Made by a program: the position numbers and the translations under genes
Source of the DNA: an uncultured Solirubrobacterales bacterium
GTDB lineage: Bacteria > Actinomycetota > Thermoleophilia > Solirubrobacterales > Solirubrobacteraceae
Assembly: GCA_963725525.1 (NCBI GenBank)
Contig: CAVRYP010000009.1
Location: forward strand, 417,111 to 481,110
Length of the DNA: 64,000 bases
Reading direction: 5' to 3'
Part shown: piece by piece, positions 13,020 to 58,826 of the stretch
Position numbering within the stretch: position 1 is the first letter of the stretch
Layout of the letters: each line of letters opens with the position of its first letter
Notes under the pieces: model-generated
What the model was told of the DNA's origin: nothing
What the model saw: the letters and a program-made list of their open reading frames with translations, nothing else
Databases searched by the model: none

Positions 13020-15739
<2,720 letters not shown>

Positions 15740-18430: not shown

Positions 18431-21400
18431 TCAGCCCCGGAAGGTCACCGTTACGTGCGTCACCGAGGAGGGGCTCTTGTTGGAGGGAATGAAGCCCACG
18501 CGCACCTTCACCTTGAGGTTGTGGTTGCTGCGCGCCAGCGCCTTCACGCCGCCGTTCGTGAGCGGCACCTTGAGCGTGATCTTCTGGGCCTTCGAGGTGT
18601 GGCGATAGGTCGTCTTGAGGTTCGCTCCGCTGCCGCTCACGCGCCCCGCGGAGGGCGTCTGCACGGTGAGGATCGCCATGTGGTTGGAGGTCTTGTGCGC
18701 GGTCACCTTCACCGAGCACCCCGCCACGACGATCGGCGTCTTCTGGCTGATCACGGCGCCGCTCTGCGCGGTGATCGTGGTTGGCATCGTGAGCGCCTTT
18801 GCGCACAGGCTGCCATTGGACGCAAGCGCCGAGTTGGGGCCGGTGGGGAGGTTCAGTTCGAACGCCGACACCGGCACGTCGGGCACCGCGGCGAAGGTGG
18901 AGGTCGTGACCCCGTTGGTGATGTTGGTGTTTCCGACCAGGATCGTCTCCACGCCATCGCTGCCATTGAGCACGAGATCGAGATCGGGGAACGCGGCGCC
19001 TCCGTGGGAGACGAAGAACGCGGGACCCGTGAGCTTCACCGGCAGCACCGGCGTGGTGACCGTCGCCCCGCCCACGCGCGAGTTGGAGGGGCAGGCAAAG
19101 GGGTTGGCGTTGAAGACCGCTTCCTTGCACGCGTGCTGCAGCGTGGAGAGGCGCGAGGGGAGCTGCTTTGGCAGCTGCACCTTCACCGAGCGGATGTTGG
19201 CCTGCGGACCCGTGGGGTAGCCGATCTTCACGCCCAGGGCGGCGCCGATCGACTTCGAGGTCTTCGCGTTGGAGGAGGCCGTGAACTTGGGCTTGAATGC
19301 CAGCGCGCTGCAGTTGGCCGCCTGGAAGGGACTCGAGAGGTTCTGCGTGGCCCCAAACGTCGAGGTGAGCGCGCTTTCGGTGGCGAGCACGCCGCAGTTG
19401 GTGGGGTTGATGAGGAAGCCCTGGCGGTTGATCGCCACGGCGAGCTTCTTCAGGCGCAGCGGCACGCCCTTCACGATCGTGGGCAGCTGGCTGGAGATCG
19501 TGACGCGCGCGGTGAAGGGGTTCACCGTGAGACCCGCGCGCACCACCACCAGGCCGAAGTTGAACGGTCCGCTGGCCGCCGCGACCTCAACGGTCATCCC
19601 GTAGGGCGCGCCGCCCACCGGGCCGGTGAGGAAGACCGGGCCCGTGAACTGCGTGGGCGTGGGGCCCGAGCCAACCTGTGTCACCGCCGTGCCGATCTGG
19701 CTCGCAAACGGACATTCGCCGTTGGTGGCCTGCGGCTCGGGGCACAACTGCGGCACCGACGGGATCAGGCCCACGAGCCCCGCGGGGAGCGTGGTGGCGA
19801 CCTTTGAGAGGTACTGCTGCCCATCGCCGCGTTCGAGGTTCAGCGTGAACGATGTCTGCGCGCCGGCCGTGGTGGGGTTGCTCTGCGTGTTCTGGCTCAG
19901 CGAGAAGGGCAGCGGCGAGGCGCAGCTGCCCCCGCTGCCGTTGCTGTCCACGGTGAAGGCGCTGATCGGCCCCACCGCGGGCGTGCCGGTGTAGGGAGCG
20001 AGGCTGGTGCTGGTCGTGGCGACGCCGCAGGAGAGCGGGTTGCCAAGCGGCGCGAGCGGCCCGCCGGTGAACTTCAGGATCAGGTTGCTGAAGGGCTGTT
20101 CGGGGTTTTCGTTGAACAGCGCCGTGAGGCGGCCCGTCGTTTCGTTGGGCACGATCTGACCCTGCAGGCGCACGGAGATCCCGTAGCGCGTGGACTCCAC
20201 GTCGAGGTACACCGTGAAGGGGGGTCCGGTGATCGGTGCGATCGCGCCGCCGCTTTCGGGACCGCCCAGATACATCGCTCCCGTGAGCGAGCCCGCGGGC
20301 AGCCCTGGCACGTCGAGCGTCGCGGTGCGCGACCTTCGAGCCGGCGGGACAGGTGACGCGGTTCCTTGGTGTGGATGCCGATCTGCTTGGGCGTGCATGC
20401 TTCAAGACCATGCGCCGCGGAGGGATTGAGCGTCATCCCTTCGGGCAGCAGGATGCTCGCGGTCTTCAGCTGCGCCGAGTCGAGGTTGGCGGGGTTGGGG
20501 TCGTGCGGGAGCACCAGTTCGGTGGTTGCGCCATCGGGCAGATCGGACTGCGTCGTTTCCGGCGCGAGCGAGAACGTCGGCGCGAAGGGGACCAGCGCGA
20601 AGGGGGGCAGGCCGTTGCAGCCTTCGGTGCCCACGGGCACGGTGTAGGAACTCGAGGCGTTTGCCCCTTCGTAGGATTCACCGCTCCAGCCGGTGGTGCT
20701 CGCGGGCCCGGCGCCCAGGCAGCTGCTGGGGTTGCTCACGAAGGCGCCGTTTTCGAGCGGACCGTTGTTGCCAAAGAAGGTGAGGCGCGATTCGAGCAGG
20801 CCGGGCGTGATGTTGTGAATTTCGAAGAGGTCGTGATAGTCGCTCGCCCATTCGACGTGCCCCTCGATGAAGGTGTGCACGAAGACTCCCGCGCCAACCT
20901 GCAGCGCCACGCCGAAGTACGAGGACATGCCGGTGGGCTGTTCGAGGTTGTAGACCTTCCCCGTGAGCGGCACATCCGCGAATACACCCGCAGCGACTTC
21001 GAGCACCGTCGTGACTTCGTTCTTGCCGATCACCGTGCTCCCAGCGCCGCTTTCGGCACATTCGGGCGCGGCAAAGAGATGCTTCACCGGTTCCACTTCG
21101 GTGGAGGTGAACTTTTCCACCGAGCACTTCGCCACGGCCTCGGGGTTCGTGCTCACCCCCGGCGCCACGTCGATGCGAAGGTTCTTGAGGTTGCCTTCGG
21201 GCGCGGACGCGGGAAAGGGCACCGTCTGGATCTGCCTGCGCTTGAGCTTGAAGTCGGTGACACCAAAGGGAGGATGCCCCGATGCCTGCGTGTAGGCCTG
21301 TGCTTCCGCGTTCGCCTTTTCTTCCGCAGGCGACGCGGCCTTGTTGCAGGTTTCGATCTTGCAGTTGGACGCGAAGAAGCTTTCCAGCCCGAATTCAGGC

Positions 21401-21483
21401 GCGGCCTGAGCGGCGGATGCGAAGATGGCCATCGTCGCACCAACCATCAGCGCGAGGAGCGAAACGCGAGCGGGGGACCTCAT
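18431..21483 (-). CDS. Large secreted Cys-paired repeat protein (paralog 1); frameshift near 20350
   Basis: Signal peptide MRSPARVSLLALMVGATMAIFASAAQA; shares NP.SC, LP.GM...PS.A.GL.AC, P..PFS.L.L.F, LPSRL.TL..AC, VSHGG.AFPDL and PDVPVS.FELNLP.GP.S with 53040 and 59386. Confidence 0.8.
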
Positions 21484-21553
21484 TACCAACCTCCCTATTG
21501 GACAGGTGGTCTCTACCCGCTTTTCGAGAGTTCTAACCGATGCAACCGTTCCG

Positions 21554-22674
21554 TCACCACTGCAGGAGCATCAGCCCAACGGTGATCCCGGGCCGATCGT
21601 CACCATCAGCCCCAGTTCGCCGGGCTCGGGCGCGCGCTCGTCGATCGTGCGCTTGAGTACATACAGAATCGATGGCGTACCGACGTTGCCGTGATTGGCC
21701 AACACGTCATAGGAGATCCCCACCTGCTCGTCGCAGAGTTCGAGGGCGCCCTGCACACTCTCGATGATGCGCCGCCCGCCGGGGTGCACGAGCCAGTGAT
21801 CGATCGCGGCAGGGGATAGATCCTGGGCGCCGAGGAAGTCCTCCACGAGCGCCCGCAGCCCGGCGCCTGCCCGATCCGGAAGGTCGCGGTCGAGGTGCAG
21901 GTAGCTGTCCTCGGCCGCCAGCTCCAGCTTGACGGCACCAAGGGAGCGCCCGATCTGGTGCACCTTGGAGGCCATGATCTGCGGGCCCTCGGCCTCGGGT
22001 GAGCCATCGAGCAGCGCCACGGCGCAGCCATCGCCGAAGATCGACGAGCCCACGACCTTGGCGCGGGTGTCGTCCGCGGAGGCGCGCATCAGGATCCCCG
22101 CCATGCTCTCGGCGGCCACCACGAGGCCCTTGCGATCGGGGTGCTCGCGCATCGACTGCGCCACGAGGCGCATCAGCGGCACGGCGCTCGCGCAGCCAAC
22201 ACCGAGCACGTGGTACTTGTCGGTGGAGGGGTCCATCTCGTAGTGATCCACCATGCGGTGCGCCAGCGTGGGGCCTCCGAGCGAGTAGAGCGTCGCGGTC
22301 ACCACCGTGCCGATCTCCAGCGGATCGACCTCGAGGCGGTCGAAGGCCTGCACGGCGTAGCCGAACAGCTCCTCCTCGATCTGCGCGGTGCGCCCCTGCA
22401 GCGTCGTCGCCAGCGACTCGCCGCTGAGGTTGAGGTGGCGGCGCTGCACCCCGCAGCGGCCGAAGATGCGCTCGGCGAACTCGTCGCCCTTCATCTCCAG
22501 CATCGTGAGAACCTCGTCTTGGGAGAAGGACATCTCCGCGTCGGCGAGCTCCAGACCGCTGATGCGCGGGCCCGCGGGCGGCGCCCCGCGCAGGGGCGTG
22601 GCCGTGGGCGTCGATTGGACGGAGGGCTGCGCCAAGTGGGGGACGATACCGGAGTAACCCGCAGACTCGCGCAA
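21554..22674 (-). CDS. Type III polyketide synthase (chalcone synthase-like); start uncertain
   Basis: Cys-His-Asn triad: GVGCASA, VHPGG, HGNVGTPSILYVL; also SIFGDG; 1-base correction gives end TIGPGITVGLMLLQW*. Confidence 0.85.
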
Positions 22675-22706
22675 CGGAGCGCCGCCAAGAGCCTGTGAAG
22701 GCGCGC

Positions 22707-24548
22707 TCAGCCGCTGATCGCGGGCGAGGTGCCGAGCACCGCGCCCGCGCCGTCGAGCGCCTGCACCGCGACGTAGGGGCGCCGTGGTGGGAGCGGCGAT
22801 CGTCGTCTCAAAGCCGCTCTTGGTGGCGCTCGCGACCGGGCGCCAGCGCGCTCGCCGAGGGGCCGGCGAGCACCCGCCAGGAGGCGACCGCGGTGGCGCC
22901 GTTCCAGCTCACCGACACCGATCAGCCGCCGCCCGAGCCGGCCTCTGCGCGGCGATCGAGGGCGCCGCCGTCGGCTGGCGCGCTCCAGGGCGCCAGGTAG
23001 GTCCTGAAGTTCTGGACGTTCTTGCCGAGCGTCGCGTCGAGCAGGACGTGGCCGCAGGCGTCGAACTCGGTGAAGTTGGGCAGCCCGCCGTAGCCGAGCA
23101 GCCAGTTCGCCGCCGGGCAGGCTGAGCGTGTTGCCCTGGCTTTCGGCCAGCAGCGTCGTGCGTGGGGTTGATGAATGCCTTCACGAGCGTGACCGTGTGG
23201 CGTGGCGGTGTCGGGGCGCAGCAGCAGCCCGCGCGACTGCTTCTCCTTCGGCGGGTCCGAGCCGTTGTCGAACACCGAGATGAGCCCGCCCGGCTGGAAC
23301 TCGGCGTCGTGCTGCCAGTAGAAGCGGCACGCCGGCCGAGCTGGAAGCTGGCTGTGATCGCCGCCGAGCCGCCAGCGGAAGCCGCCGCTGTGCAGGTCCA
23401 CGTCGTACAGCGTCCACGTGTTGCGCGCGGAGAGCAGCACATCGCCGGAGGAGCCGGGGTCGATCGAGTTGACGTGGATGTAGTCCCACGGGTAGGAGGA
23501 GTGCTGCGGCGGGGTTGTTCGATTCGCCGATCGGGATGTGCCCGAGCGCGTGCCACTCCCACATCACGAGGCCCGTCTTGACGTCGATCTCCTGCACGAC
23601 CGAGTCGGTCGAGGATGCCGTTCGGCGGAGCCGTGCGCGGCGGAGAGGTTCATGTGGATCGGGTCGAAGGCGTCGATCCACGCGGTCCCCTGCGGGGTGA
23701 GGCGGATCTCGTGCAGGTCGGCGTGATAGCCGTTGCCCGCCCGGATGCGTCGCGAGCGGCTGGTAGGAGCTGTCGTAGATCACGTCTTCGCCCTCGCCCG
23801 AAGCCCACCTGCAGGATGCGCCCCTGCCACCACGCGAGGACCGGCTGGCCCTGGTACTGCTGCGACCTGGAAGTTGGTCGCGACCTCGTGCGCGGGGAGC
23901 GGGTGAAACCACACGAGGTTGCCCGCGCTGGTCGACGATCATCGGTCCCGGCGCGCCCGCGCCCTGATAGGGGGCGAGGAACAGATCGCCGCTCGCCGCG
24001 CCCGGCTGAGCGGGCGACGTGATGCGCACCGTCGAGGGCGCGAGCGAGGGCGCCGAGCGGTAGTGCTGGACCGCGCGCGGGTCGCCGGGGTTGTTGGGGA
24101 ACTCGCTGCGGCTGACCGCCGCCTGGTGCGCGATCGTGAAGGTCGTCGCGGCAGCCAGCGCGGGGCCGCCCGCCCTGCTGCACACGCGCGCTGACCGTCA
24201 CGCGCTCCCCCGCGAGGAAGGGATGGCGCGGGCAGGAAGCTCTCGCCGGTGCCCGTCGAGTAGGCGCGCGAGGCGCCCGGAGTGGCTGCCCGAGCGCGAG
24301 CCACGAGCGCTCACCGAGAGCACGCGCAGGCCCGCTGCGCCGAGGAAGCAGATCTGCGTGGCAGGCGAGGCGTCGGGGGTGCCCGGAAGCGGCGAGACCG
24401 TCACCGGGTTGGCCGGCCGCGGCGGCGACGGAGGCTTTGTCATCCAGCGCGAGCGGCGCCGACCGCCTGCAGGAGCCCCCGCACGCGGAGAGGGCGATGC
24501 CCACCGCGGTGAGTCCCAGCACGCCGGCCGAGCTCTGCCTCGCCCCAT
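22707..24548 (-). CDS. Arylsulfate sulfotransferase (ASST-like) lipoprotein, heavily frameshifted
   Basis: Lipobox IALSAC; pieces WWQGRI, DLHEI, QEIDVKTGLVMWEWHALGH, YIHVNSID, LLSARNT, WQHDAE, FDNG, FTEFD, SWNGAT. Confidence 0.75.
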
Positions 24549-24599
24549 CAACCCCGCTCTCCCGCCTCGATGACGACGGGAATCGTAAAGCAGCCTCCC

Positions 24600-26330
24600 A
24601 GCGGCCAGCGCCGCTCGCCGGAGAGTCGAAAGCTGCACCACCGCGGGTGGGCGCCGAGGTGCCGCAGGAGCGGGCGGGGTGGGCTGGGGATTTTTTTTAG
24701 GAGGGGGGGTCGCGTCGTGGGGGGCCTGCGCGGCTGCCGAAACCGCAGCGGACTCGGAGCGGTGGCGGGGGGGCGGGGGCGACCGGAAGCGGATGGACCG
24801 TCGCGCCCGTCGGCGGCGGCACAGCGGGCGGGATCGACCGGGGCGTACGCGCGGGATGAAGCGAAATGCGATTGCCGCGCCGATCGCGGCGAAGCCCGCG
24901 GAGATCAGGAAGGCGAGGCGAAAGCCGTTGGTGAGCGCCATCAGCGGCGGCTGATAGTCGCTGGAGATCAGGTGCGCCGTGTACTGGGTGCCCAGCGAGG
25001 TGAGCAGCGCAAGGCCGAGCGCGCCGCCCATCTGGCGTGAGGTGTTGACGAGCCCGGAGGCGAGGCCGGCCTCGCTCGGGGCGCACGCCCGCGGTGGCGG
25101 CGATCGTGGCGGGAACGAACGCGAGGCCCACGCCGATCGAGGCGAGCAGGCCGGGGAGCAGCAGATCCTGGCCGTAGCCGCCGTCGACGGTGATGCGCGC
25201 GAACAGCGCGAGACCGGCGGCCATCAGCGTGAGGCCCGACGCCGAGCACGGGGCCGGCGCCGTAGCGCCCCACCAGGCGCCCCGCGCGCGTGGCGCAGAC
25301 CATGATCGTGAGCGCCATCGGCAGGAACGCGAGGCCGGCGCCGATCGGGGTCATGTGCAGCACGAGCTGGAGGTAGAGCGAGAGGAAGTACCACATCGGG
25401 AACAGCGCGGCGCTGAACGTGAGCACGATCAGGTTGGAGATGCGCAGCAGGCGGATCGAGAACGCGCGCAGCGGCACCAGCGGGTCGGTGGCGAAGCGCG
25501 CCTCGATCACGACGAACGCCACCAGCAGCACGAGCCCGAGCACGATCGGGCCGAGCGCTTGCAGCCGAACCCCAGCTGTCGGCGCCGGCGCTGACGATCC
25601 CGTACACCAGCGCGAGCAGCCCGCCGGTGATCGAGAGCGCGCCGGCGAGGTCGAACGAGCCGGCGCCCTCGCGGCGGCGTTCGGCGACGGCGGCGCTCGC
25701 CACCAGCGCCGCGCCGATTCCGATCGGGATGTTGATGAGCAGGATCCAGCGCCAGCCGAGCGTCTGCGTGATGACCCCGCCCGCGAGCACGCCCGCGGCG
25801 CCGCCGGCGCCGCTCATCGCCCCCCACAGGCCGATCGCGCGCAGCCGTTCGGGGCCGGGGGCGAAGGAGGAGTTGATGATCGCCAGCGAGGCCGGCGCCA
25901 TGATCGCCCCGCCGAGGCCCTGCAGCGCGCGCGCGCCGATCAGCATCCCCTGGCTCTGGGCCACGCCGCCCGCGAGCGAGGCGAAGGCGAACAGTAGGAA
26001 GCCGGTTATGAACACGCGCCGCTGGCCGAACAGATCGGCGGCGCGGCCGCCGAGCATCAGAAAGCCGGCGAAGGTGACCGCGTAGGCGTTGACGATCCAC
26101 TGCAGGTCGATCGCCGAGAAGCCGAGGGCCGCGCGGATCGAGGGCAGCGCGACGTTCACGATCGAGACGTCGAGGATGACCATGAACTGCGCCGTGCAGC
26201 ACACCGCCAGCATCAGCGCGTGGCGCGAGTGCGCGGCCCGGCTGCGCCTGCGCTGCGGCGGCGCCCGCTGGCGGGGCGATCTGAGCGTGGGCGGACTGCG
26301 GCCGCCAGGCCGATCGCCGTGGGCCTTCAC
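24600..26330 (-). CDS. DHA2 (EmrB/QacA) MFS transporter, frameshifted; 3' end approximate
   Basis: QFMVILDVSIVNVALPSI, GGRAADLFGQRR, WRWILLINIPIG, QMGGALGLA. Confidence 0.85.
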
Positions 26331-26395
26331 GGAGGTCAGGACGGGCGGCGGGATAGAGGGCGGCGGTGCTCAGCCGTGCTTGAGGGCAAGCCTCG

Positions 26396-28303
26396 TCAGC
26401 CGGCCGGCGGGGCGGCGGGCGGGGGCGTGCACGGCAACGGTGTTCGAGGTGCCGAGCAGCTCGCCCGCTCGCGTCGAGCGCCTGCACCGATACGTAGGCG
26501 TAGCTTCTCGGGCAGCGTCACCGAGCTCTCGAAGCCGCTGTCGGGCATCGTCTCCACGGGCTTCAGCGAATCCGCGCCTTCGCCCCGCGAGCACTCGCCA
26601 CGAGGCCACGTCGGTCGCGCCGTTCCAGCTGGCGAACACCGCCGTGGAGTCGCCCGTCGAGAGCACCCGCGCACTCACCGCGGGGGGCGTCAGCGGGTGC
26701 CCGCTCCAGGGGAAGCGGAAGGCTCGGTAGGAGGACATGCCGGGCGGCAGGTGCGCATCGAACAGCAGCGAGCCGCTGCTTGTCGAACTCGCTGATCTCG
26801 GGCACCGCGCCCCAGCCGATCACCGAGTCTTCGTCGGGCAGCGTCTGGTTGTTGCCCTGCGAGTCGGCCAGCAGCGCCGCAGGGGTGCGTATAGACGCTT
26901 CACGAGGCTCGCGCGGCGGTGGGCGAGGTCGAGCGCCACGCGCACGCCCGCGCGACTGGTAGTGGATGCGGGGGTTCGAGCCGTCGTCGAAGAACGTCAC
27001 GCTCCCGTCGGGGAGCATGCGCGCGTCGTGCTGCCAGGCCGTTTCGGTGCCCGCGACCCATCGCAAAGCTGCTCTGGGTCCCGCCCAGGCGCCAGAGGAT
27101 CATATCCGGTGCCCTGCTGCAGCTGGTAGGCCGCCCACGTGGAGCGCCCGGAGATCAGCAGGTTGCCGTCTCGGCTCGGGGTCGATCGAGTTGAGGTGGA
27201 ACCAGTCCCAGGGCACCGGCTTGTGCCTTGGCGGGCACCGTCGCGTGGGACTCGCTCACGCCGACGTGGTCGAGGCTGTGCCATTCCCAGCGCACGAGGC
27301 CGGTCTTGATGTCGAGCGCCTGCACGGCGGTGTCCACGATCGTGCCGTTGCGCGGACCGTCCACCGGCGTCAGGTCGCAGCGCATCGGGTTGTAGACGGT
27401 GATGTAGGCGACCTGATTGGGCGCCAGCTGGAAGTCGTGCAGGTCGGCCTGGAAGCCGTTGCCCCGCGCACGCGCGCGACGGTCTGGTAGTCGTCGTTCA
27501 TCACGATGTCTTCGCCCTCGCCGAAGCCGAGCGAGAGCACGCGCCCCTGCCACCAGGTGAGGTCGCGCTCGCCTTCGTAGCTCTGCATGCTGAGGTTCTC
27601 CGCGGCGCTGCCACCCGAGAGCGGCTGAAACCACACCAGCGCGCCCCTGCGGGGTGTAGATGAGCGGGCCGAACTGCCCCGGACCCGGCCCCACGGTGGT
27701 GAGCAGATCGCCCGATACGGGGTCGCGGTCGGGCCACGTGACGGCCATGATCGGCGGATGCACATTGGGCGCCGAGACGAAGCTCTGGTAGGAGGAGGGC
27801 GGCGCGGGCGGGTTGGGGAACTCGGGGATCGAGTCGGTGGGATAGGGCGTGGCGATGTGGAAGCTGAAGCTCACCTTCCTGCCCGCGCCCGCGCCCTGCA
27901 GCACGGCGTTCACCGCCACGCGCTCGCCTTCCTGGAAGGGTTCGTCGGGCACGAAGGAGCCGCCATCGCCCTGGAAGTAGCCATAGAGGTGGCCGTAGTG
28001 GTAGCCGCTCTGCGAGCCCACCACCGAGACATCCTGGATGTTGGTGACGGGCGTGCCCAGGAAGCTGATCTGGGTGTGGGGGTTGGCGGTGTCGGTCTCC
28101 GGCGCCGGCGAGACATCAACCGTGGTGCCGTCGAGCGCGGCGGAGTGATCGAGCGTGGCCGGCAGGCACACCGGAGAGGGCCCGCTGGGCCCCACCGCGG
28201 AGCGCGCGCCGGAGAAGGTGCCCGAACCGAGCACCACCGCAACGACCACCCACGCGAGGATCGCGAGGGGGACGATTATGAGGCCCAGCCGCAGGTGCTT
28301 CAC
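26396..28303 (-). CDS. Arylsulfate sulfotransferase (ASST-like) with N-terminal membrane anchor, frameshifted
   Basis: N-terminal TM; TWWQGRV, DLHDF, DIKTGLVRWEWHSLDH, WFHLNSID, WQHDAR, DSQGN, YRAFRFPWSG, ASWNGAT. Confidence 0.8.
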
Positions 28304-28312
28304 GTGGTGAAG

Positions 28313-29203
28313 CTACACCGCCACGGAGGCGCCGTGCAGCGGGCCGAGGTTTGGTTGGCGCCCATGCAACTCGAACGCCAGGAAGCGACTGAAGAGGCGG
28401 TGGTCGGGACCGTGGAAGTCGGCAGAGCCCGTGCTCAGCAGCCCCAGCTCCTCACAACGATCGGCCAGCAGCTGGGTCTGGGGCGCGTCGTGGGTGACAT
28501 AGAAGCACTCCACGCCATCCATCCCCGCCGCGCGGAAACGATCGATGCACGAGAGCACCTCCTCGGGGGAGTCGAGATCCCAGAAGGGATGCGCCCACAC
28601 CGCCACGCCGCCCGCATCGTGCACCCACTGGATCGCCTGCTCCACGGTCGGCTCGGTGCGCCCGGAGTACGCCGGAGCGCCGGGGATCAGGTAGGCGGGC
28701 AGAAACGAGGCCACATCGTCGTGACCTTCCTCGGCAAGACGCGTCGCGTTGGCCGGATGTGACAGCACCGCGGCAGATAAATGTGGGCGCCCCAGCGGCT
28801 TGCCCTCGCGCAGGCGCGCATCGAGCGGGGCCTGGTCGATCTCAAAGCCCAGCTCGATGAGCTTCCCCGCCATGCGCTCCGCGCGCCGCTCGCGATCTTC
28901 GCGCGCACCGGCGAGACGCTCGCGCAGCAGCGCATCGCGATGGTCGATGCCATAGCCGAGCACGTGCAGGTCTTCGTAGGCGCCATCCACCGAGGAGATC
29001 TCCGCGGCGGGGACCAGCTCGATGCCGTGGGCGCCGGCGGCGGCGAGCGCCTCCTCGATGCCATCAACGGTGTCGTGGTCGGTGAGCGCCAGCAGCTGCA
29101 CTCCGGCACGCGCGGCGTGCTCGATGACGCCGGCGACCGGCAGTTCACCGTCGGAGTGCAGCGAATGGCACTGCAGGTCGAATACCGGCCAGGGCGCAGA
29201 CAT
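28313..29203 (-). CDS. PHP-domain phosphoesterase (TrpH/YciV/RNase AM-like)
   Basis: DLQCHSLHSDG, LTDHDT, GRPH, WAHP, GSADFHG. Confidence 0.85.
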   Translation of the reverse strand: MSAPWPVFDLQCHSLHSDGELPVAGVIEHAARAGVQLLALTDHDTVDGIEEALAAAGAHGIELVPAAEISSVDGAYEDLHVLGYGIDHRDALLRERLAGAREDRERRAERMAGKLIELGFEIDQAPLDARLREGKPLGRPHLSAAVLSHPANATRLAEEGHDDVASFLPAYLIPGAPAYSGRTEPTVEQAIQWVHDAGGVAVWAHPFWDLDSPEEVLSCIDRFRAAGMDGVECFYVTHDAPQTQLLADRCEELGLLSTGSADFHGPDHRLFSRFLAFELHGRQPNLGPLHGASVAV

Positions 29204-29361: not shown

Positions 29362-30783
29362 TCAAGATGCGGGCGCCGGGGTCGCAAGCTCGAGCGGCGC
29401 GCCGAAGCTCACGCGCAGCAGCGCTCCGCCACCGGGAGCGTTCTCCGCGCGCGCGTAGCCACCGCCCCCTTCCGCGGCCTGGCGCACGATCGCGAGCCCA
29501 AGCCCCGATCCCGGCAGCGAGCGCGCGCCCTGCGCGCGGTAGAAACGATCGAACACAAACGCCACATCCTCGGGGCGAAAGCCCGGCCCGTGGTCGCGCA
29601 CCGTGAGCTCGCCACCCCGCAGCCCCACCTCCACGAGCCCCCCCGCGGGACTCCACTTGCAGGCGTTGTCGAGCAAATTCGACACCGCGCGGCCAATCGC
29701 GCCCGCGTGCCCGCTGAGCAGCGTGGGCTCCAAGCTCACATCCCAGCGCACATCGCTGCGCCGCCGCGCGCGCTCGAGGGCCTCCTGCACGACCTCATCG
29801 AGGCGCACTTCGTCGGGCGCCTCGCGCTGGGGCGAGCTGCCGCGTGCCAGCTCCACCACATCGCCCACCAGCGCCGTCAGCTCATCGAGCTCGGAGACGA
29901 TGTCCCTGCGCAGACTCTCCTGCTCGGACGCCGGCAGCCGCGCCGCTTCACCGAGCACCTCGATGTTCACGCGCAGGCTCGCAATCGGCGTGCGCAGCTC
30001 GTGGCTCGCATCGGCGATCAGGTGGCGCTGGGCCTCCACCGAGCGCTCGAGCGCGTCGAGCGTCGTGTTGAAGCTCTCCGCAAGGCGCGCGATCTCATCG
30101 CGGCCCTTCACCTCCAGGCGCTCGGACAGATCGAGGCTGCCCGTGAGCGTCTCCGTGCGCCGCGTGAAGCGCGCAATCGGCGCCAGCGCCGTACGCGCCA
30201 CCAGCGCTCCAAACAGCGCCGCCAGCGCGATCCCCGCGAGGCCGATCGCCACGAGCAGCAGCAGCAGATTGCTCAGCTCGTGTTCCACCTCGCTCAGCGG
30301 GCGCGCGATCATCACAGCGCCGCGTTCGCCCGTGCCGAGGGTCAGCACGCGCAGGTGCGTTCCGCGCACCATGCGATCGCTCAGCACGCTGCCGCTGCCC
30401 CGCCGCGCGATCCCCTCATCGAGCGCGGAGGGCGCGATCCGCGAGTTCGCGCTCTGGCCCCCGGGCACCTGCACTGCACCACTCGGCGTGAGGAACTGCA
30501 CGAAGCCCTCCGCCCCGCCAAACGGCGCCGGCGCCACCGTGCGCGGAAACGCGCCCCCATCGCCGTCCGGAGGCGGCGGCGGGCGGCCGTCGAGCGGCGC
30601 CCCCGGCGGCGGCCCTCCTCTTCCGCGCGGCCCCGCGAACGTCTGCGCCCGGTCGCGCAGCGAGCGATCGATTTCCCCGCGCAGATCCGAGCGCACCGCG
30701 AAGTACAGCCCCAGCGCGACCCCCAGCACCGCGAGCGCCACCGACACGCTCGCGAGCGCCGCGATGCGCACGCGCAACGTCAT
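29362..30783 (-). CDS. HAMP sensor histidine kinase (MprB-like)
   Basis: Two TMs, HAMP, DASHELRTP, NLLDNA, DHGPG, GSGLGLAIV. Confidence 0.92.
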   Translation of the reverse strand: MTLRVRIAALASVSVALAVLGVALGLYFAVRSDLRGEIDRSLRDRAQTFAGPRGRGGPPPGAPLDGRPPPPPDGDGGAFPRTVAPAPFGGAEGFVQFLTPSGAVQVPGGQSANSRIAPSALDEGIARRGSGSVLSDRMVRGTHLRVLTLGTGERGAVMIARPLSEVEHELSNLLLLLVAIGLAGIALAALFGALVARTALAPIARFTRRTETLTGSLDLSERLEVKGRDEIARLAESFNTTLDALERSVEAQRHLIADASHELRTPIASLRVNIEVLGEAARLPASEQESLRRDIVSELDELTALVGDVVELARGSSPQREAPDEVRLDEVVQEALERARRRSDVRWDVSLEPTLLSGHAGAIGRAVSNLLDNACKWSPAGGLVEVGLRGGELTVRDHGPGFRPEDVAFVFDRFYRAQGARSLPGSGLGLAIVRQAAEGGGGYARAENAPGGGALLRVSFGAPLELATPAPAS

Positions 30784-31487
30784 GGCTCACGCAGGACGTA
30801 CCCCACCCCGCGCACGGTGTGGATGATCTCCTCCGCCCCCGCCTCTTCGAGCTTGCGCCGCAGGTAGCCGATGTACACGCGCAGCGCGTTGGAGGTCGGC
30901 CCGAAGTCATATCCCCACACGCGCTCGTAGATCGCGCTGTGCGAAAGCACCCTGCGCGGATTGTCCAGCAGCAGCTCCAGCAGCTGATACTCGGTGCGCG
31001 TCAACTCCACCAACCGCTCTCCCACGAGCGCCCCATGGCGCGTCGGATCGAGGCTCACGCCGCCAAAGGAGAGCTTCTCCTCCTCCACGGGTCCCTCCCC
31101 ACGCGCCTCCCCCGCGGGAGCCGAGCGGCGCAACAGCGCCCGCAGGCGAGCCTTCAGCTCACCCACATCGAAGGGCTTCACCATGTAATCGTCAGCTCCC
31201 ATATCGAGCCCATCGATGCGATCAGCCACCGCGTCGCGCGCCGTGAGGATCAGGATCGGCACCCGGTTCTCGAGCTGCCGCAGGCGCCTGCACACCTCCA
31301 GCCCATCGACTCCCGGCATCCCCACATCCAGCACCACCGCATCCGGGACCTCCTGCGCGACCATATCCAGGCACTGCGTTCCATCCTCGGCAATCTGCAC
31401 CTCGTACCCGCCCAGCGTCAACGCGCGGCGCAGGGCCTCGCGCACCGCGCGGTCGTCATCCACTACAAGGATCCTCACAGACCTCAT
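30780..31487 (-). CDS. OmpR-family response regulator (MprA-like); start 31487 or 31478
   Basis: ILVVDDD, LDVGMPGVDG, GADDYMVKPF, VWGYDFGPTSNALRVYIGYLRRKLE; ATGA overlap with kinase. Confidence 0.92.
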   Translation of the reverse strand: MRSVRILVVDDDRAVREALRRALTLGGYEVQIAEDGTQCLDMVAQEVPDAVVLDVGMPGVDGLEVCRRLRQLENRVPILILTARDAVADRIDGLDMGADDYMVKPFDVGELKARLRALLRRSAPAGEARGEGPVEEEKLSFGGVSLDPTRHGALVGERLVELTRTEYQLLELLLDNPRRVLSHSAIYERVWGYDFGPTSNALRVYIGYLRRKLEEAGAEEIIHTVRGVGYVLREP

Positions 31488-31499
31488 ATTGTCGTATGC

Positions 31500-32558
31500 G
31501 TGAGACTGCGACGACGACTCACCCGCTTGCTGCCGGCGCTCCTCACAGCGTTCGCGATCTTCGCCGGGACCGCCGAGGGCAGCGTCTCCCCCGCCGAGCG
31601 CTCGCTGCTGAGTGGCGTGCAGGTGGGGCAGGCGAGCCTCTTTCGCCAGTTCGACACGGGCTTTGGGGAGGCATTTGGCAACCCTCCTGGAGCGGTGCGG
31701 TTCCGCACGGGGGAGCGATCGTTCGTTGCTGCCCTGCAGCGCGCGGGGACGCGCCTGCTGGAGCAGGGCAGCGCTGCGGCGCTCTCCCGAGAAGCCATCC
31801 GCGCCGAACGTGCCTGGCAGACGCACAGCCGGGGTCTATCCATGGGAGGCCGCACGGGCGTGTTCATCCATACCCTCGCCGCAGCCGAGATCGCGTTCTG
31901 GAAGGGCATCGCCGGCGCGGTGCACGCCCATGAGACATCCTCTGCTGCACCCTCCTTTCAGACAGCTGTGAACAGCGCCGGATCGGCCTTCGCGGGGCGC
32001 TTCCAGCGTGCGGTGTGGGCATTACTCAAGGGAGCCCACTCCAGCCGCGGCAGGCAGGCGGCGCTGCTCAGATTGGTCGGCCTGGGGGTGCGGCGCTTCA
32101 GCTCGAGCGTGAGTGCGGGGGCGAAGGGGTTCGGCACGGGTGAGAGCGCCCCCAACAACCCGGGCCCATCTCCATCGCCCGAACCGCCGAGCACAACCCC
32201 TGTCCCGGGCACTCCCGCGCCCCAGGCGACCCACCTCGCCCTGCACTGCCCCGCAAGCGAGCACGTCAACGAAGCTCTGAGGGTCTCCGGAACGCTTACG
32301 CCGGCGCCCGCGGGAGCGAGCATCGAACTCCTCTACTACCCCCCACCCTATGCGGGAGTCGAATCGGCCCCGATCCTCAAACAGCTCGCCGTCCCCGCCG
32401 GCGGCGAATTCAGCGATGCAAGCGTGACTCCGGAAGCCGAAGGGGGCGGCGCGAAGGGCTCGCTCGCGGGCACCTGGATCGTCGAAGCCCGCTATGGCGG
32501 CAGCGCGCTCTACAGCCCCCCGCTGCCGAACCAGTGCGACATTCAGGTCGAAGCCTGA
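31500..32558 (+). CDS. Secreted hypothetical protein (helical region, Pro-rich linker, Ig-like C-terminus)
   Basis: Signal peptide VRLRRRLTRLLPALLTAFAIFAGTAEG; PSPSPEPP linker; VSGTLTP...GTWIVEARYGG. Confidence 0.65.
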   Translation: MRLRRRLTRLLPALLTAFAIFAGTAEGSVSPAERSLLSGVQVGQASLFRQFDTGFGEAFGNPPGAVRFRTGERSFVAALQRAGTRLLEQGSAAALSREAIRAERAWQTHSRGLSMGGRTGVFIHTLAAAEIAFWKGIAGAVHAHETSSAAPSFQTAVNSAGSAFAGRFQRAVWALLKGAHSSRGRQAALLRLVGLGVRRFSSSVSAGAKGFGTGESAPNNPGPSPSPEPPSTTPVPGTPAPQATHLALHCPASEHVNEALRVSGTLTPAPAGASIELLYYPPPYAGVESAPILKQLAVPAGGEFSDASVTPEAEGGGAKGSLAGTWIVEARYGGSALYSPPLPNQCDIQVEA

Positions 32559-37262: not shown

Positions 37263-37965
37263 ATGAGATTGATCGGCGCCGGGCTGCCGCGAACGGCAAC
37301 GCTCACGCAGAAGACCGCGCTCGAAGATGCTGGGCGTGGGGCCCTGCTACCACATGGTCAACGTCCTCGCGGACCTCGACCAGGCGAATCTGTGGATGGC
37401 GGCCCTCGACGGGCAGCCCCAGTGGGATGAGATCTTCGCGGGTTTTCAGTCGACGGTGGACTGGCCCGGGGGCTACTTCTACAAGGAGCTGATGGAGGTC
37501 TACCCCGACGCGGTGGTGCTGCTGAGCGTGCGCGACCCGCAGGCGTGGGCCAAGAGCGCGCACAACACCGTCTGGAGCGTGCGCCACGGCGAGTCTCTGA
37601 TGCGCCTGCTCTCGAGCGCCTGGGGCGAGATCGACCCGAAGTGGCAGGGCTTCCTCACGATGGTGGACGGACTGCTGTGGAAGGACAGGGGCACCTTCGC
37701 CAACGCCCACGAAACCCTCGAGCAGCTCGCCGAGCGGATGGTCGCCTTCAATGAGGAGGTCAAGCGCACCGTTCCGGCGGAGCGTCTCGTGGTGTGGGAG
37801 CCCAAGGACGGCTGGGAGCCGCTGTGCACCGCACTCGACGTGCCCGTTCCCAGCGAACCTGTGCCGCACGTCAACGACAGCGAGGAGTTCGTCGCGCGCG
37901 TCGTCGACGGCGCGCTGGCCGGACTCCAGGCCTGGCAGGAGAGCCGCGCGGCAAGCGTTTCCTGA
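37263..37965 (+). CDS. P-loop sulfotransferase (Sulfotransfer_4-like); frameshift near 37325
   Basis: IGAGLPRTATLTQKTALE, PCYHM, VDWPG, YPDAVVLLSVRDPQAWAKS, GWEPLC, PVPHVN. Confidence 0.8.
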
Positions 37966-37971
37966 GGCCCC

Positions 37972-39504
37972 TTACGCGGCCTGAACCGCCAGGGACTCAC
38001 CGCTCGCCTCCGCAGCCAGATCGACCTCCTGCGGCCGCGTGGCCGGTGGGCGCAGCAGCACGAACGCCGCGAGGATTCCCAGCGCTACGCACACCGCGGC
38101 GACGGTGTAGGCCAGGTGGTATCCACCGGTGAGCGCGCTCGCAAGCGAGTGGCCGTCGGCGCTCAACGCCTTCGTGTGATCGGTGGCGATCGTCCCCAGC
38201 GTGGCGAGGCCGATCGCGCCGAACAGCTGCACCGATACGTTGATGATCCCCGACGCCAGGCCCGCATCGCGCGAGGGCACATCGGCCATCCCGATCGTGA
38301 GCAGCGGCAGGAAGGACGCGCCCGCGCCGAGGCCGAGCGCGAAGAAGGCGAAGAAGAGACCGGGGAAGTAGCTCGCGTGTACACCCTGAGTGGCCAGCAG
38401 CACCAGACCCACCACGATGCCCACGAGTCCCGCCGCGAGCGTCTGAACAGAGCCGAAGCGTTCCATCGCGCGCGCCGATATGCCCAGCGACATCGCGGCG
38501 ATGGCCACCGTGAGGGGCATGAACGCCAGTCCTGTTTCGATCGCGTCGTAGCCGAGCACGTGCTCCAGGTACAGCGCGCCGAGGAAGAACGCCGAGAACA
38601 TGCCCGTTACGAGCAGGCCGCGCACGAGGCTCGAGCCCATCAGCGTGCGCAGGCGCAGGATCCGCAACGGCATGATCGGGTTGGCCACGCGCGCCTCCAG
38701 CCCCAGGAAGGCCGCCAGCAGAGCCAGCGATGCGGCAGCCGCGCCGAGCGTGCGCGCCGAGAGCAGGCCGTATTCGCTCGACTTGACGATCGCGAACGCG
38801 CCGAACATCGTCGCGAGCGTGATCAGGATCGATCCAAGGACGTCCACTCCGCCCGCGAGGCCGATGCCCTCGTTCTCCTCGATCAGCATCGCGCCGAGCA
38901 GCAGCGCGACCACGCCGATGGGCACGTTCACGAAGAAGATCCAGTGCCAGCTCAGCGACTGCGTGAGCGCCCCGCCGGCGAGTAGCCCGATCGAGCCGCC
39001 CCCGGCAGACACGAACGCGTATACGCCCATCGCCTTGGCCTGCTCGACCCGCTCCGGGAACTCGGTGACGATGATCGCGAGGATCACGCTCGAGGCGATC
39101 GCACCGCCAACCCCCTGGATCAGGCGCGCGCCGATCAGCATCGCTTCGCTGCTTGCGAACCCGCACAGTATGGATGCCGCCACGAACACCACGAGCCCGC
39201 TGAGGAAGACCTTCTTGCGGCCCACCAGATCGCCGAACCTGCCCGCCAGCAGCAGGAAGCCGCCAAATGTGATCAGGTAGCCATCGATCACCCACGTGAG
39301 ATTCGCCTGCGTGAAGTGAAGTTCGCGCTGGATGGAGGGCAGCGCGACGTTGACGATGGTCGCATCGAGCACCATCATCAACTGCCCCAGGCAGAGCACC
39401 GCCAGCGCTATCCAGCGACGCCGCTCACGCTTGCGCGCGGTCTCCTCCTCGGTGCTCGCCTCCGGCTTCTCGTAGTGGGTGGGTGTGGTGGCGGTGGTGC
39501 TCAT
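37972..39504 (-). CDS. DHA2 MFS transporter
   Basis: LDATIVNVALPSI, GRFGDLVGRK, WHWIFFVNVPIG; many TMs. Confidence 0.92.
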   Translation of the reverse strand: MSTTATTPTHYEKPEASTEEETARKRERRRWIALAVLCLGQLMMVLDATIVNVALPSIQRELHFTQANLTWVIDGYLITFGGFLLLAGRFGDLVGRKKVFLSGLVVFVAASILCGFASSEAMLIGARLIQGVGGAIASSVILAIIVTEFPERVEQAKAMGVYAFVSAGGGSIGLLAGGALTQSLSWHWIFFVNVPIGVVALLLGAMLIEENEGIGLAGGVDVLGSILITLATMFGAFAIVKSSEYGLLSARTLGAAAASLALLAAFLGLEARVANPIMPLRILRLRTLMGSSLVRGLLVTGMFSAFFLGALYLEHVLGYDAIETGLAFMPLTVAIAAMSLGISARAMERFGSVQTLAAGLVGIVVGLVLLATQGVHASYFPGLFFAFFALGLGAGASFLPLLTIGMADVPSRDAGLASGIINVSVQLFGAIGLATLGTIATDHTKALSADGHSLASALTGGYHLAYTVAAVCVALGILAAFVLLRPPATRPQEVDLAAEASGESLAVQAA

Positions 39505-39558
39505 CGAATGCTCCTTCCAGGGTGCTTCCAGGGGTGCGATGAGAACACCATAGCATGG

Positions 39559-39618
39559 ATCATCACTGATACAGGTATCATCGCCTTAAATGTGATGATT
39601 GCTGTTGCGTGGTATAAT
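39559..39618. promoter_or_regulatory. Divergent promoter with putative MarR operators
   Basis: TGATAC-AG-GTATCA (39567-39580); ATCATCAC...GTGATGAT (39559-39599); TATAAT at 39613. Confidence 0.6.
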
Positions 39619-39627
39619 CCTTCCGTT

Positions 39628-40116
39628 ATGACCGATCAGGTTCGCCCCTGTGCCCCCAACTCGATGGTGCTTCTCACGCGCCTTGCCAAGCAGGTCTACA
39701 GGCGCAGCGACGAGGAGCTTCTGGGCATGCACCTGCGCCTGCTGATGGCGCTCAGCTACGTGCGCGACCACGACAATGCCCCCCAGCAGGAGCTCGCGGA
39801 GGCGCTTTGCATGGACGCCAACAACGTCGTGCTGCTGCTCAACGAGCTCGAGGATCTGAGGTTTGTCGCGCGCCGTCGCGACCCCCACGATCGCCGGCGT
39901 CACCTGGTCGAGCTGACCGAGGAGGGTGCGCGCGCGCTGACCAGCGCCGAGCGCGCGCAGGAAACGATCGAGGACGACGTTCTGCGGGCGCTCGACCCCA
40001 GCGAACGGGCGACCCTGTGGCAACTGCTCACCCGTGCCCTGCAGGGGGCCGAGCCCGCCGTGCCCGAGCCGGAGGCGGATCGAGAGGCCACCGCGAGCGC
40101 GACCGTCGCGACGTAG
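39628..40116 (+). CDS. MarR-family regulator
   Basis: QQELAEAL, LNELE, DPHDRRRHLVELTEEG; divergent from MFS. Confidence 0.9.
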   Translation: MTDQVRPCAPNSMVLLTRLAKQVYRRSDEELLGMHLRLLMALSYVRDHDNAPQQELAEALCMDANNVVLLLNELEDLRFVARRRDPHDRRRHLVELTEEGARALTSAERAQETIEDDVLRALDPSERATLWQLLTRALQGAEPAVPEPEADREATASATVAT

Positions 40117-52965: not shown

Positions 52966-53039
52966 AAGGATTTAATTAAGGAGAGCGGGTCGGTGAGTGC
53001 GAACCAAGGCACCTACCCGAACCCCACGCGGGGGGCGGT

Positions 53040-57865: not shown

Positions 57866-57910
57866 GACACGTCGATCATCGCTGCACAGTTTATGTCTCT
57901 AACTAGTCTC

Positions 57911-57947
57911 GAAACCATGTGGGACCGCAGTGGTCCCACATGGTTTC
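57911..57947. terminator. Perfect 16-bp stem-loop inside the operon (stabiliser/attenuator)
   Basis: GAAACCATGTGGGACC-GCAGT-GGTCCCACATGGTTTC. Confidence 0.75.
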
Positions 57948-57975
57948 TTCGACTTTGGTTTAGTGGTGAGACCTA

Positions 57976-58803
57976 CTATTCATTGAATGCACCGAATTCT
58001 CCGCCAGCAGTTAATTCTACCTTTATCTTGCCTTGCAATTCGGCCGGATTGGTCCCGAGGAAGAGCCTCGGCTTGATTACGGTTGCTTGATGATGCAGTT
58101 CCTTTATATTGGGATCAAGCCATGTAAGATGGCCTGCGGTTGCGTCGGCATTCTGGGGTTCGACTAAGGCAGCCGTACCCCAAACTATAGCATGTTCTTC
58201 ATTATTTTGATCGATAAACGTCGTCCTAGGACCTCTGGCGAACACTGTCAGATTGCCGACGCAGACGGTACCAGCAGGAATACGAATCGTTGTGAATGGT
58301 GCCTGGAATTCGCCTTTACCGACGGTCCCTATTTCTTCAGGTGTGGACGTCGGTGCAAAGGCATCATAGATTTTTTGCTGTCCTACTTTTGTGAGTTCTT
58401 CCGCTTCGCCACGATATTTCCACATCAGTTCTGTGAAGGCTTTTGTTTCGTCGACTGTCACTGTGTTGGCGACTTTACACGGTTCCAGCAGAGAACATTC
58501 TTCCCACTTAACTTCTGTATTATCCTCTCCTTGATGAAGGCCGTTCCAAATATTGCCTTTATCTTTTACTTTATTACACTGGACAGTCGCTGGTGCTCCT
58601 GCAATAATACTTTTTAGTTGGAAGCCTCCTTCGTTTATGCTTTTGACCTGATGCTCTTCATTTAGTTTCCATTTTACTTGTTTGCCGCCTTCCGGATGTC
58701 TCCACCACGGTCCTTCCAATGCGGCCGACGCCGCAGTAGACGCAACCGAGCCCACTGCCATAACAGCCAGCAAGCTCAGTAGCAGAACTTTAAATCGAAA
58801 CAT
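57976..58803 (-). CDS. Small secreted beta-rich protein, low GC
   Basis: GGGAG RBS; signal MFRFKVLLLSLLAVMAVGSVASTAASA; 4 Cys; AT-rich codons. Confidence 0.75.
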   Translation of the reverse strand: MFRFKVLLLSLLAVMAVGSVASTAASAALEGPWWRHPEGGKQVKWKLNEEHQVKSINEGGFQLKSIIAGAPATVQCNKVKDKGNIWNGLHQGEDNTEVKWEECSLLEPCKVANTVTVDETKAFTELMWKYRGEAEELTKVGQQKIYDAFAPTSTPEEIGTVGKGEFQAPFTTIRIPAGTVCVGNLTVFARGPRTTFIDQNNEEHAIVWGTAALVEPQNADATAGHLTWLDPNIKELHHQATVIKPRLFLGTNPAELQGKIKVELTAGGEFGAFNE

Positions 58804-58826
58804 ACTCAGACAACTCCCTTCGGTTC

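Follow-up and report, generated by a model that had tools for sequence, protein, structure and literature searches.

Where might sulfotransferases stationed outside the cell obtain activated sulfate, given that, to our knowledge, 3'-phosphoadenosine-5'-phosphosulfate (PAPS) never leaves the cytoplasm? This question is raised by a stretch of 64,000 nucleotides (hereafter, the window) from an uncultured Solirubrobacterales bacterium (GenBank assembly GCA_963725525.1, contig CAVRYP010000009.1, positions 417,111 to 481,110 of the forward strand), in which a type III polyketide synthase (PKS) gene closes a co-oriented run that includes two genes for putatively exported arylsulfate sulfotransferases (ASSTs) and one for a major facilitator superfamily (MFS) transporter. 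The natural substrates and physiological role of most bacterial ASSTs are described as unknown in a 2026 review (PMC13426309), and an earlier note on this DNA had proposed that a phenol or pyrone made by the PKS is exported as a sulfate shuttle for surface-located ASSTs. The proposal drew upon caprazamycin biosynthesis, in which, as described in PMC4257720, triketide pyrones are sulfated by the PAPS-dependent enzyme Cpz8 and the resulting aryl sulfates are the donors of the ASST Cpz4. We found that the run belongs to a conserved module composed of a type III PKS, a Sulfotransfer_4 protein, a DHA2-like efflux MFS, and two to four anchored ASSTs of the Cpz4 type. The literature searched yielded no paper describing such a PKS-ASST-MFS module.

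The run of genes and its conservation in related loci

The earlier note had described five genes lying on one strand with short gaps between them, and this description was borne out. All five are on the minus strand of a window with a G+C content of ~70%, and they are listed here from the first gene of the run to the last.

28313-29203, minus strand: PHP-family phosphoesterase (PF02811), first gene of the run; membership in the system uncertain
26396-28303, minus strand: ASST1, Cpz4-like (PF14269), carrying a membrane helix and an additional beta-sandwich at its N-terminus; some 13 likely assembly frameshifts
24695 to about 26390, minus strand: efflux MFS, DHA2-like (MFS_1), about 590 aa with a Pro/Ala-rich C-terminal tail; frameshifted, start approximate
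22707 to about 24554, minus strand: ASST2, lipoprotein-type, Cpz4-like (PF14269, lipobox); about 20 likely assembly frameshifts, boundaries mapped from the related locus L003
21554-22674, minus strand: type III PKS (Pfam, motifs, and PDB matches), last gene of the run

Only 9 nt separate the stop of the PHP gene from the start of ASST1, the MFS and ASST2 genes overlap or abut, and ~33 nt lie between the ASST2 stop (22707) and the PKS start (22674). For the comparison with relatives, we kept 80 loci (numbered L001 and onward) out of 146 relatives, all from metagenome-assembled genomes (MAGs) titled Solirubrobacterales or Solirubrobacteraceae; the closest of these share 89-93% nucleotide identity with the window. 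The 80 loci were classed by tblastn into four types, in which a tilde marks a fusion in one reading frame.

Type A, 10 loci and the window: ASST1-MFS-ASST2 on the same strand as the PKS and upstream of it
Type B, 33 loci: an operon of Sulfotransfer_4-ASST1-MFS~ASST3-ASST2, divergent from the PKS
Type C, 9 loci: the PKS followed by ASST1-MFS(~ASST3)-ASST2(-ASST4)
Type D, 28 loci: no ASST in the fetched flank, which is too short to judge in L017 and L028

Overall, 52 of the 80 loci have ASST and MFS genes no farther than 10 kb from the PKS, in three arrangements, so the adjacency of PKS and ASST is conserved, as the proposal of the earlier note required. The gene arrangement is beyond chance, since 10 related loci show the same order and the linkage of PKS and ASST is kept through three arrangements. 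A quick tree was built from 79 PKS rows, L070 and L051 having been left out because of a stop or a split in their tblastn hits, and the locus types match its clades, with support values of 98 for type A, 90 for type C, 99 for type B, and 99 for the main type D clade of 24 loci. Flanking genes are likewise particular to each type, with a two-component system and the PHP gene in type A, succinyl-CoA ligase in type B, CopCD in type C, and F420 genes in type D. Because these flanking genes differ between the types, the gene set moves as a unit. The run in the window is a real and probably intact operon of a Solirubrobacterales bacterium.

The identity of the PKS is supported by matches to PF08392 (E 5e-14) and PF02797 (E 5e-13), with PF08541 and PF08545 also passing their cut-offs, and by the Cys, His, and Asn motifs GVGC, HPGG, and GNVG together with FGDG, all present in the window protein. 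As assembled, its open reading frame (ORF) spans 21571-22674; one base missing at 21592 shifts the last ~15 codons, and the true stop lies at about 21554. The triad motifs align with those of Pks11 and were recovered by a strict pattern in 74 of 79 relatives, the other five missing only the flanking-residue pattern for the Asn. Its best PDB relatives are the Mycobacterium tuberculosis enzymes Pks11 (E 1e-31) and Pks18 (E 1e-30 to 1e-31). Among NCBIfam models, DpgA scored highest with 139-150 bits, far below its cut-off of 425, and an atlas comparison returned generic type III PKS clusters only.

Both window ASSTs were matched in the search with arylsulfotransferase profiles, in which PF14269 was found on the pieces 22922-23440 (E 3e-10) and 27155-28303 (E 3e-8), while the piece 26563-27066 scored 24.1 bits, below the 27-bit cut-off. 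Their intact orthologues match PF14269 with E values of 1e-33 to 1e-50. The earlier note had likened the pair to Cpz4, and the likeness proved close: ASST1 of L006 matches PDB entries 9KF4 and 9KF6 with an E value of 1e-92 as a single sequence, and with a profile built from 18 ASSTs of these loci, the match to 9KF4 reaches an E value of 2e-145. The Foldseek title of the matched entries is 'Streptomyces sp. sulfotransferase Cpz4 involved in caprazamycins synthesis'. An AlphaFold2 model of the L011 orthologue of ASST1, rather than of the window gene, reached a pLDDT of 91.3 and a pTM of 0.89, and Foldseek aligned it with 9KF6 at an E value of 3.5e-42, a target TM-score of 0.93, a root-mean-square deviation of 1.9 Å, and 37% identity. 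Judged by sequence, both ASSTs are close homologues of Cpz4.

Members of the ASST family take the sulfuryl group onto a catalytic histidine. All 18 ASST1-4 sequences compared share the residues H308, H365, H386, R408, and H446, and in a profile alignment H386, R408, and H446 correspond to residues 356, 374, and 436 of Escherichia coli AssT (3ELQ), which agree in position with what we take to be its catalytic residues His356, Arg374, and His436. The catalytic His and Arg motifs are retained in both window proteins when these are read with indel guidance. ASST1 keeps ADLH, LDH, SGR, and WQHD with 0 stops in 637 codons, and ASST2 keeps ADLH, LGH, DYIHVNS, SAR, and WQHD with 0 stops in 652 codons; the DY(F/I)H pattern was matched in ASST2 only and not in ASST1. 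Both proteins also have predicted export signals, in keeping with the claim that they are exported. The ASST1 N-terminus (ORF from 28303) carries a hydrophobic anchor that is a transmembrane helix in orthologues, and the ASST2 N-terminus (ORF from 24522) carries the lipobox LSAC, which is kept in ASST2 orthologues. In ASST3, the transmembrane segment is preceded by RR. Compared to Cpz4, these proteins have ~190 residues more at the N-terminus, where a linker and a beta-sandwich accompany the membrane helix or lipobox. The family at large counts 8210 representatives at an E value of 1e-3 or lower, of which 1448 reach 1e-30, and its members fall into a long class and a short one that resembles Cpz4; a rough check found a hydrophobic start in 53 of 80 long members but only 9 of 30 short members. 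A third ASST gene of the same genome lies on contig C9 at 489177-491225, ~8 kb past the end of the window, as a 682-aa ORF 44-46% identical to the L006 cluster ASSTs and with no neighboring MFS, PKS, or sulfotransferase.

The MFS of the window matches MFS_1 over 25224-26330 (E 9e-35). Its best model is TIGR00711 (DHA2), for which the cut-off is 230.2 bits and the scores were 224.8 for L006, 222.4 for L012, 198.7 for the L011 fusion, and 141 for the window fragment; every other match was an efflux MFS. Plain MFS proteins of type A, including that of the window, end in a Pro/Ala-rich tail of ~100 residues. In 34 of the 52 linked loci (28 of 33 of type B, 6 of 9 of type C, and 0 of 10 of type A), the MFS is instead fused with ASST3 in one frame of ~1000 aa; of the five type B loci without the fusion, the end of the record truncates three, and changes of frame interrupt the other two. 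The following fusion was examined as a representative.

L011:3664-6708, minus strand: MFS~ASST fusion of 1014 aa, with MFS_1 at residues 33-425 and Arylsulfotran_2 at residues 648-907

Between its two domains are an Arg-rich stretch and a strongly hydrophobic helix. Among the database matches listed, 120 of 120 relatives (862-1097 aa) carry PF07690 and PF14269 in one protein, with public names of only 'MFS transporter' or 'EmrB/QacA', and we found no paper describing the fusion in the literature searched. In a 14-helix DHA2 pump, the C-terminus is cytoplasmic. The fused ASST domain would lie outside the cell, because the 14-helix DHA2 portion ends in the cytoplasm and a 15th helix is added. 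An AlphaFold2 model of the 1014-aa fusion built from 23 sequences had a mean pLDDT of 45 and a pTM of 0.32, too poor for three-dimensional claims; as weak evidence, it placed 14 long helices, then one more, and then a beta-rich domain. By a simple hydropathy count, the fusion has 13 segments and the plain MFS has 11, although this method under-counts and is no proof of topology.

Frameshifts in the assembled sequence

ASST1, the MFS, and ASST2 are each split over several frames in the present assembly, and the earlier note had allowed that the indels responsible might be real. Intact orthologues of the split genes are present in L003, L005, L006, L009, L012, and L048. When the window was aligned with seven syntenic relatives, it carried 44 private indels, compared to 2 in L003, 4 in L012, and 8 in L001, and 41 of the 44 shift the frame. 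Insertions account for 38 of the 44 private events (35 of them single-base), mostly of G or C and outside homopolymers. The private indels are confined to 22.8-27.6 kb (patch 22780-27639), coinciding with ASST1-MFS-ASST2; in the adjacent 4.3 kb, which includes the PKS and the gene downstream of it, only three were counted, versus 41 in 5.6 kb. A comparison with the contig of the nearest relative gave the same picture, with 21, 13, and 20 frame-shifting extra bases of the window in the three 2-kb bins of the 22-28 kb region, compared to 0-8 per bin outside it.

One explanation for this pattern is that ASST1, the MFS, and ASST2 are decaying pseudogenes in this organism, with real indels that perhaps followed the loss of a sulfotransferase, leaving only the PKS at work. 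In its favor, the density of frameshifts in 22.7-28.3 kb is about ten times that of the flanks, the dense patch is roughly the extent of the three genes, and the sulfotransferase adjacent to the PKS in relatives is deleted in the lineage of the window. We nevertheless consider this explanation very improbable. The excess of G or C insertions outside homopolymers argues against it, as does the mismatch rate to the nearest relative, which is flat over the patch at 8.8-9.0%. When the private indels were dropped, each gene read through without a stop and with a low ratio of nonsynonymous to synonymous substitution rates (dN/dS) versus L003: 301 codons and 0.09 for the PHP gene, 594 codons and 0.15 for ASST1, 534 codons and 0.20 for the MFS, and 608 codons and 0.28 for ASST2. 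Window-private nonsynonymous/synonymous counts for the three split genes were 12/28, 16/29, and 38/48, which correspond to ratios of 0.43-0.79 against a neutral expectation of ~2.5-3, and those of the L001 branch (15/54, 9/30, and 17/41) are also far from neutral.

Independent sequence pointed in the same direction. Eleven of the private insertions fall between 26239 and 27054, and among the matches listed, 9 of them are absent from the contigs of four independent soil or rhizosphere metagenomes, which are mostly 90-99% alike. Public sequencing runs each cover only a small share of the stretch (at most 0.13 of its words). Other genes of the assembly, which has a genome completeness of 80%, are split as well, such as MFS genes on other contigs that lie in several frames and the following gene of the window.

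13020-15739, minus strand: aconitase, as two overlapping ORFs (13020-15125 and 15095-15739); likely an assembly frameshift in a housekeeping gene

Furthermore, in the Illumina MAG L002, where the sulfotransferase is missing as well, ASST2 was matched in one piece over the full 1.3 kb present on its short contig. Since the extra bases are private, are mostly single-base insertions outside homopolymers, are absent from independent contigs, and leave genes under purifying selection once dropped, we regard the frameshifts as very likely errors of the consensus, and the indels are thus most likely not real. Such errors perhaps arose from strain variation collapsed within a variable block. The indels cluster sharply in exactly ASST1-MFS-ASST2.

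Sulfotransferase supply and a possible sulfate relay

The earlier scheme overlooked its own need for a PAPS-dependent sulfotransferase. There is no PAPS-type sulfotransferase in the run, so the three enzyme types are not encoded together there; they do occur together in 41 related loci (8 of type A and 33 of type B). A Sulfotransfer_4 gene (PF17784) stands back-to-back with the PKS in 65 of the 80 loci, namely 8 of 10 of type A, 33 of 33 of type B, 0 of 9 of type C, and 24 of 28 of type D, and it opens the ASST operon in every one of the 33 type B loci. The L006 copy matches its family with an E value of 1e-61 and, as its best PDB match, entries 9KF1 and 9KF2, presumably Cpz8 judging from the deposit series, with an E value of 2e-44; it also matches the PAPS-dependent oxamniquine sulfotransferase of schistosomes. 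The PKS-adjacent copies of relatives score 209-219 bits against PF17784 and have the loop PRTGT.

In the window, this gene is deleted, with ~780 bp of L003 reduced to ~36 bp. The only close relative of the PKS-adjacent sulfotransferase in the genome is a paralogue located elsewhere in the window.

37263-37965, plus strand: Sulfotransfer_4 paralogue (PF17784, E 4.8e-50), with one frameshift near its start

Its piece at 37327-37965 scores 170.8 bits against a PF17784 cut-off of 22.8, and the phosphosulfate-loop region lies before the frameshift; in the syntenic copy of the nearest relative, to which it is 95% identical, the loop reads PRTAT instead of PRTGT. Identity to the PKS-adjacent copies is 55-59% (58% to L006 by tblastn). 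The paralogue was found 15-22 kb upstream in all type A genomes tested (syntenic in 5 of 5), including those that have the PKS-adjacent copy. An APS kinase, which would contribute to the supply of PAPS, is encoded in the genome (207 bits). The paralogue is also part of a second unit at 37263-40116, together with a convergent DHA2-like MFS (37972-39504) that is 37% identical to the MFS of the cluster and a MarR regulator. In the PKS tree, L002 groups with L003 (support 87), yet only L003 has the PKS-adjacent sulfotransferase, and the window and L001 form a separate pair without it. Because L002 pairs with L003 and apart from the window and L001, the tree suggests that this gene was lost twice within the type A clade or that recombination occurred.

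For the module as a whole, we give an even chance to a reading in which a two-step sulfation resembling that of Cpz6, Cpz8, and Cpz4 has been moved outside the cell, forming a relay of activated sulfate across the membrane. In such a relay, a cytoplasmic PKS would make a small pyrone or phenol, which a Sulfotransfer_4 enzyme would sulfate with PAPS, following the caprazamycin precedent. The aryl sulfate would then be exported by the MFS, as suggested by the family of this protein and by the fusion. ASSTs on the outer face would load the sulfuryl group onto their catalytic histidine, consistent with what is known of the family and with the conserved residues, and would hand it on to extracellular acceptors, beyond the reach of PAPS. 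Our guess for these acceptors is envelope glycans or glycolipids, because Cpz4 prefers sugar hydroxyls according to the review (PMC13426309).

A different explanation is that the pathway ends with the sulfated polyketide, which the PKS and a PAPS sulfotransferase would make and the MFS would export as an amphiphile or antimicrobial comparable to sulfated alkylresorcinols. The ASSTs would then either remove or pass on its sulfate outside the cell, as a form of pro-drug activation, or serve an unrelated purpose. In favor of this explanation, no unit is better conserved than the pair of PKS and Sulfotransfer_4, which is present in 65 of 80 loci and stands without linked ASSTs in 24, and there is a precedent in the adipostatins, which PMC12135136 describes as sulfated final products of a type III PKS and a PAPS sulfotransferase. 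ASSTs are also expanded to 6-11 matches per genome, so their adjacency may be partly incidental. We find this explanation unlikely, since the linkage outlasts three rearrangements, the sulfotransferase heads the ASST/MFS operon in 33 of 33 type B loci, and the fusion of pump and ASST in 34 loci ties the exported substrate to the ASST; simple removal of sulfate, moreover, would call for a sulfatase and not several diverged transferases. The ASST expansion is marked in five Solirubrobacteraceae genomes of 3.3-3.7 Mb (G011-G015, with loci L056, L064, L069, L074, and L065), each of which has 6-11 PF14269 matches, partly in tandem.

It is less likely still, in our estimation, that the PKS product is the acceptor, such that an exported or membrane-bound phenolic lipid or pyrone is sulfated outside from environmental aryl sulfates, or that the ASSTs detoxify exogenous phenolics. 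The window and the type C loci, which have no linked PAPS sulfotransferase, would fit this explanation, as would the ASSTs of genomes without the PKS or sulfotransferase of the module, and ASSTs transfer sulfate among phenols in vitro according to the review (PMC13426309). However, it leaves unexplained a cytoplasmic sulfotransferase that heads the ASST operon in 33 loci and stands beside the PKS in 65, and in the Cpz system, the closest characterized one, the PKS product is the donor, as described in PMC4257720.

The interpretation offered in the earlier note has partial support, and a number of results weigh against the relay. We infer each of its chemical steps, the observations being gene identities, Cpz4 homology, catalytic residues, export signals, linkage, and the fusion. 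The absence of a linked sulfotransferase from the window is a real gap in the scheme; Sulfotransfer_4 is unlinked to the PKS in the window, L001, L002, and all 9 type C loci, and in the window a paralogue of 55-59% identity would have to serve. In 26 judgeable loci, the PKS has no linked ASSTs, and the genomes concerned keep ASST/MFS clusters elsewhere. In 24 of the 28 ASST-unlinked type D loci, the sulfotransferase adjoins the PKS, and the type D genomes have their 6-11 ASST matches, including fusion-sized frames, away from this pair. The matches of the PKS point to no particular product class. The MFS misses the DHA2 cut-off by 5-8 bits and its direction of transport is taken from the family, while the outside location of the fused ASST rests upon the helix count and the positive-inside rule, with a pLDDT of 45 for the model. 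Beyond the 80 loci, PF14269 occurred in 23 of 301 genomes sampled evenly across the phylum, and 0 of the 20 other ASST genes (18 genomes) had a PKS, Sulfotransfer_4, or MFS relative within 10 kb, so ASSTs of this family can clearly work with other donors. Neither a Sulfotransfer_4 nor a PKS relative was found in four ASST-positive genomes from other genera of the same family or in one from the same order.

Despite these points, the relay offers a concrete answer on the role of ASSTs in an abundant group of soil bacteria, in which genes for a putative donor, exporter, and transferase travel together. It is quite possible, although we hold the idea only tentatively, that Solirubrobacterales maintain an extracellular sulfation economy, in which a dedicated small aryl-sulfate carrier, made by PKS and sulfotransferase and pumped out by an MFS that is often fused to an ASST, would act as an 'outside PAPS' for surface ASSTs working on envelope glycans, glycolipids, or environmental compounds. 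If true, it would provide the first example of a natural donor supply for extracytoplasmic ASSTs, along with the first described fusion of a transporter to a sulfotransferase. The two-step sulfation of caprazamycin would widen from a cytoplasmic tailoring reaction to general extracellular sulfation, and new ASSTs with a natural donor would become available for PAPS-free biocatalytic sulfation.

Neighboring genes and known systems

The PHP gene at the head of the run matches its Pfam family with an E value of 1.4e-7. PAPS sulfotransferases release adenosine 3',5'-bisphosphate (pAp), and the best NCBIfam model of the PHP protein is NF041577 (3',5'-nucleoside bisphosphate phosphatase), at 170.4 bits with the cut-off of 400 not reached, followed by RNase RNM at 118.9. 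The gene is single-copy in the genome and is linked only in type A loci and near three type C loci. Since the score is under the cut-off, the gene is single-copy, and the linkage is mainly a type A trait, a role as the pAp phosphatase of the pathway is kept as a hint only. The run is bordered by the following genes.

30780-31826, minus strand: response regulator (Response_reg and Trans_reg_C)
29362-30783, minus strand: histidine kinase upstream of the run (HisKA, HAMP, and HATPase_c in the L001 orthologue)
18431-21489, minus strand: secreted protein of ~1040 aa with a signal-peptide-like N-terminus, directly downstream of the PKS; split by private 1-nt insertions at 20359 and 20328

The histidine kinase is upstream in 7 type A loci and in 0 type B or C loci. 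The ~1040-aa protein, whose orthologues had no Pfam or NCBIfam match, is found downstream of the PKS only in type A loci, in all those with enough flank, and has weaker paralogues in L003, L047, and L056. The kinase/regulator pair and the ~1040-aa protein were considered as parts of the module and not counted, being conserved only in type A loci. At the far end of the window, positions 53000-64000 have a G+C content of 51-58% versus ~70% and contain ORFs of 910, 698, 324, and 1072 aa without a Pfam match. The segments 53.0-55.6 kb and 59.4-61.9 kb appear to be paralogous, because both match the same two places in the contig of the nearest relative, and the 53-64 kb stretch is possibly an acquired island.

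The closest known system is the two-step sulfation by Cpz6, Cpz8, and Cpz4, reportedly described for Streptomyces sp. MK730-62F2 by Tang et al. in Nat Chem Biol in 2013. It shares with the module a type III PKS, a PAPS-type sulfotransferase (in the copy of the relatives), and an ASST of the Cpz4 type. The module differs in having no antibiotic or other scaffold pathway nearby. As the earlier note had stated for the vicinity, no nonribosomal peptide synthetase, modular PKS, or nucleoside-antibiotic genes were found in the 64-kb window, nor in the flanks of L011, L047, and L056, and genes for a liponucleoside acceptor are absent from the window. The module instead sits amid housekeeping genes in soil Solirubrobacterales, includes a dedicated efflux MFS, and has two to four ASST paralogues, each with an export signal in the form of an anchor, a lipobox, or a pump fusion, whereas the Cpz4 chains of 453-472 aa do not have the extra N-terminal beta-sandwich of ~90 residues. 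The cluster of the window further differs in being without the sulfotransferase.

AssT of E. coli CFT073, which is partnered with DsbL/DsbI (3ELQ, 3ETS, 3ETT, and 4P04-4P07), is likewise an extracytoplasmic, PAPS-independent beta-propeller sulfotransferase. It is related only distantly, with a profile E value of 0.054 and, for the L011 ASST1 model, Foldseek E values of 1e-10 to 4e-12, 13-14% identity, and a target TM-score of 0.45-0.49. AssT is centered on PF05935, is soluble and periplasmic, and is paired with a disulfide oxidase system, whereas the module ASSTs are centered on PF14269, are predicted to be membrane-anchored, and are accompanied by a PKS, a sulfotransferase, and a pump. Its natural donor and acceptor are unknown too, according to the review (PMC13426309).

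In the AdpST/adipostatin cluster of Streptomyces davaonensis, as presented in PMC12135136, a type III PKS is again clustered with a PAPS-dependent sulfotransferase for phenolic hydroxyls. That cluster differs in having its own PAPS cassette, in including no ASST, and in yielding a sulfated polyketide (an alkylresorcinol) as its end product; the same text sets AdpST apart from most bacterial sulfotransferases (PMC12135136). Lastly, the drug:H+ antiporters of the DHA2 group (EmrB/QacA/LmrA-type) are the best family match of the module MFS, at 199-225 bits, from which the MFS of 34 relatives differs by adding a predicted 15th helix and a complete ASST domain.

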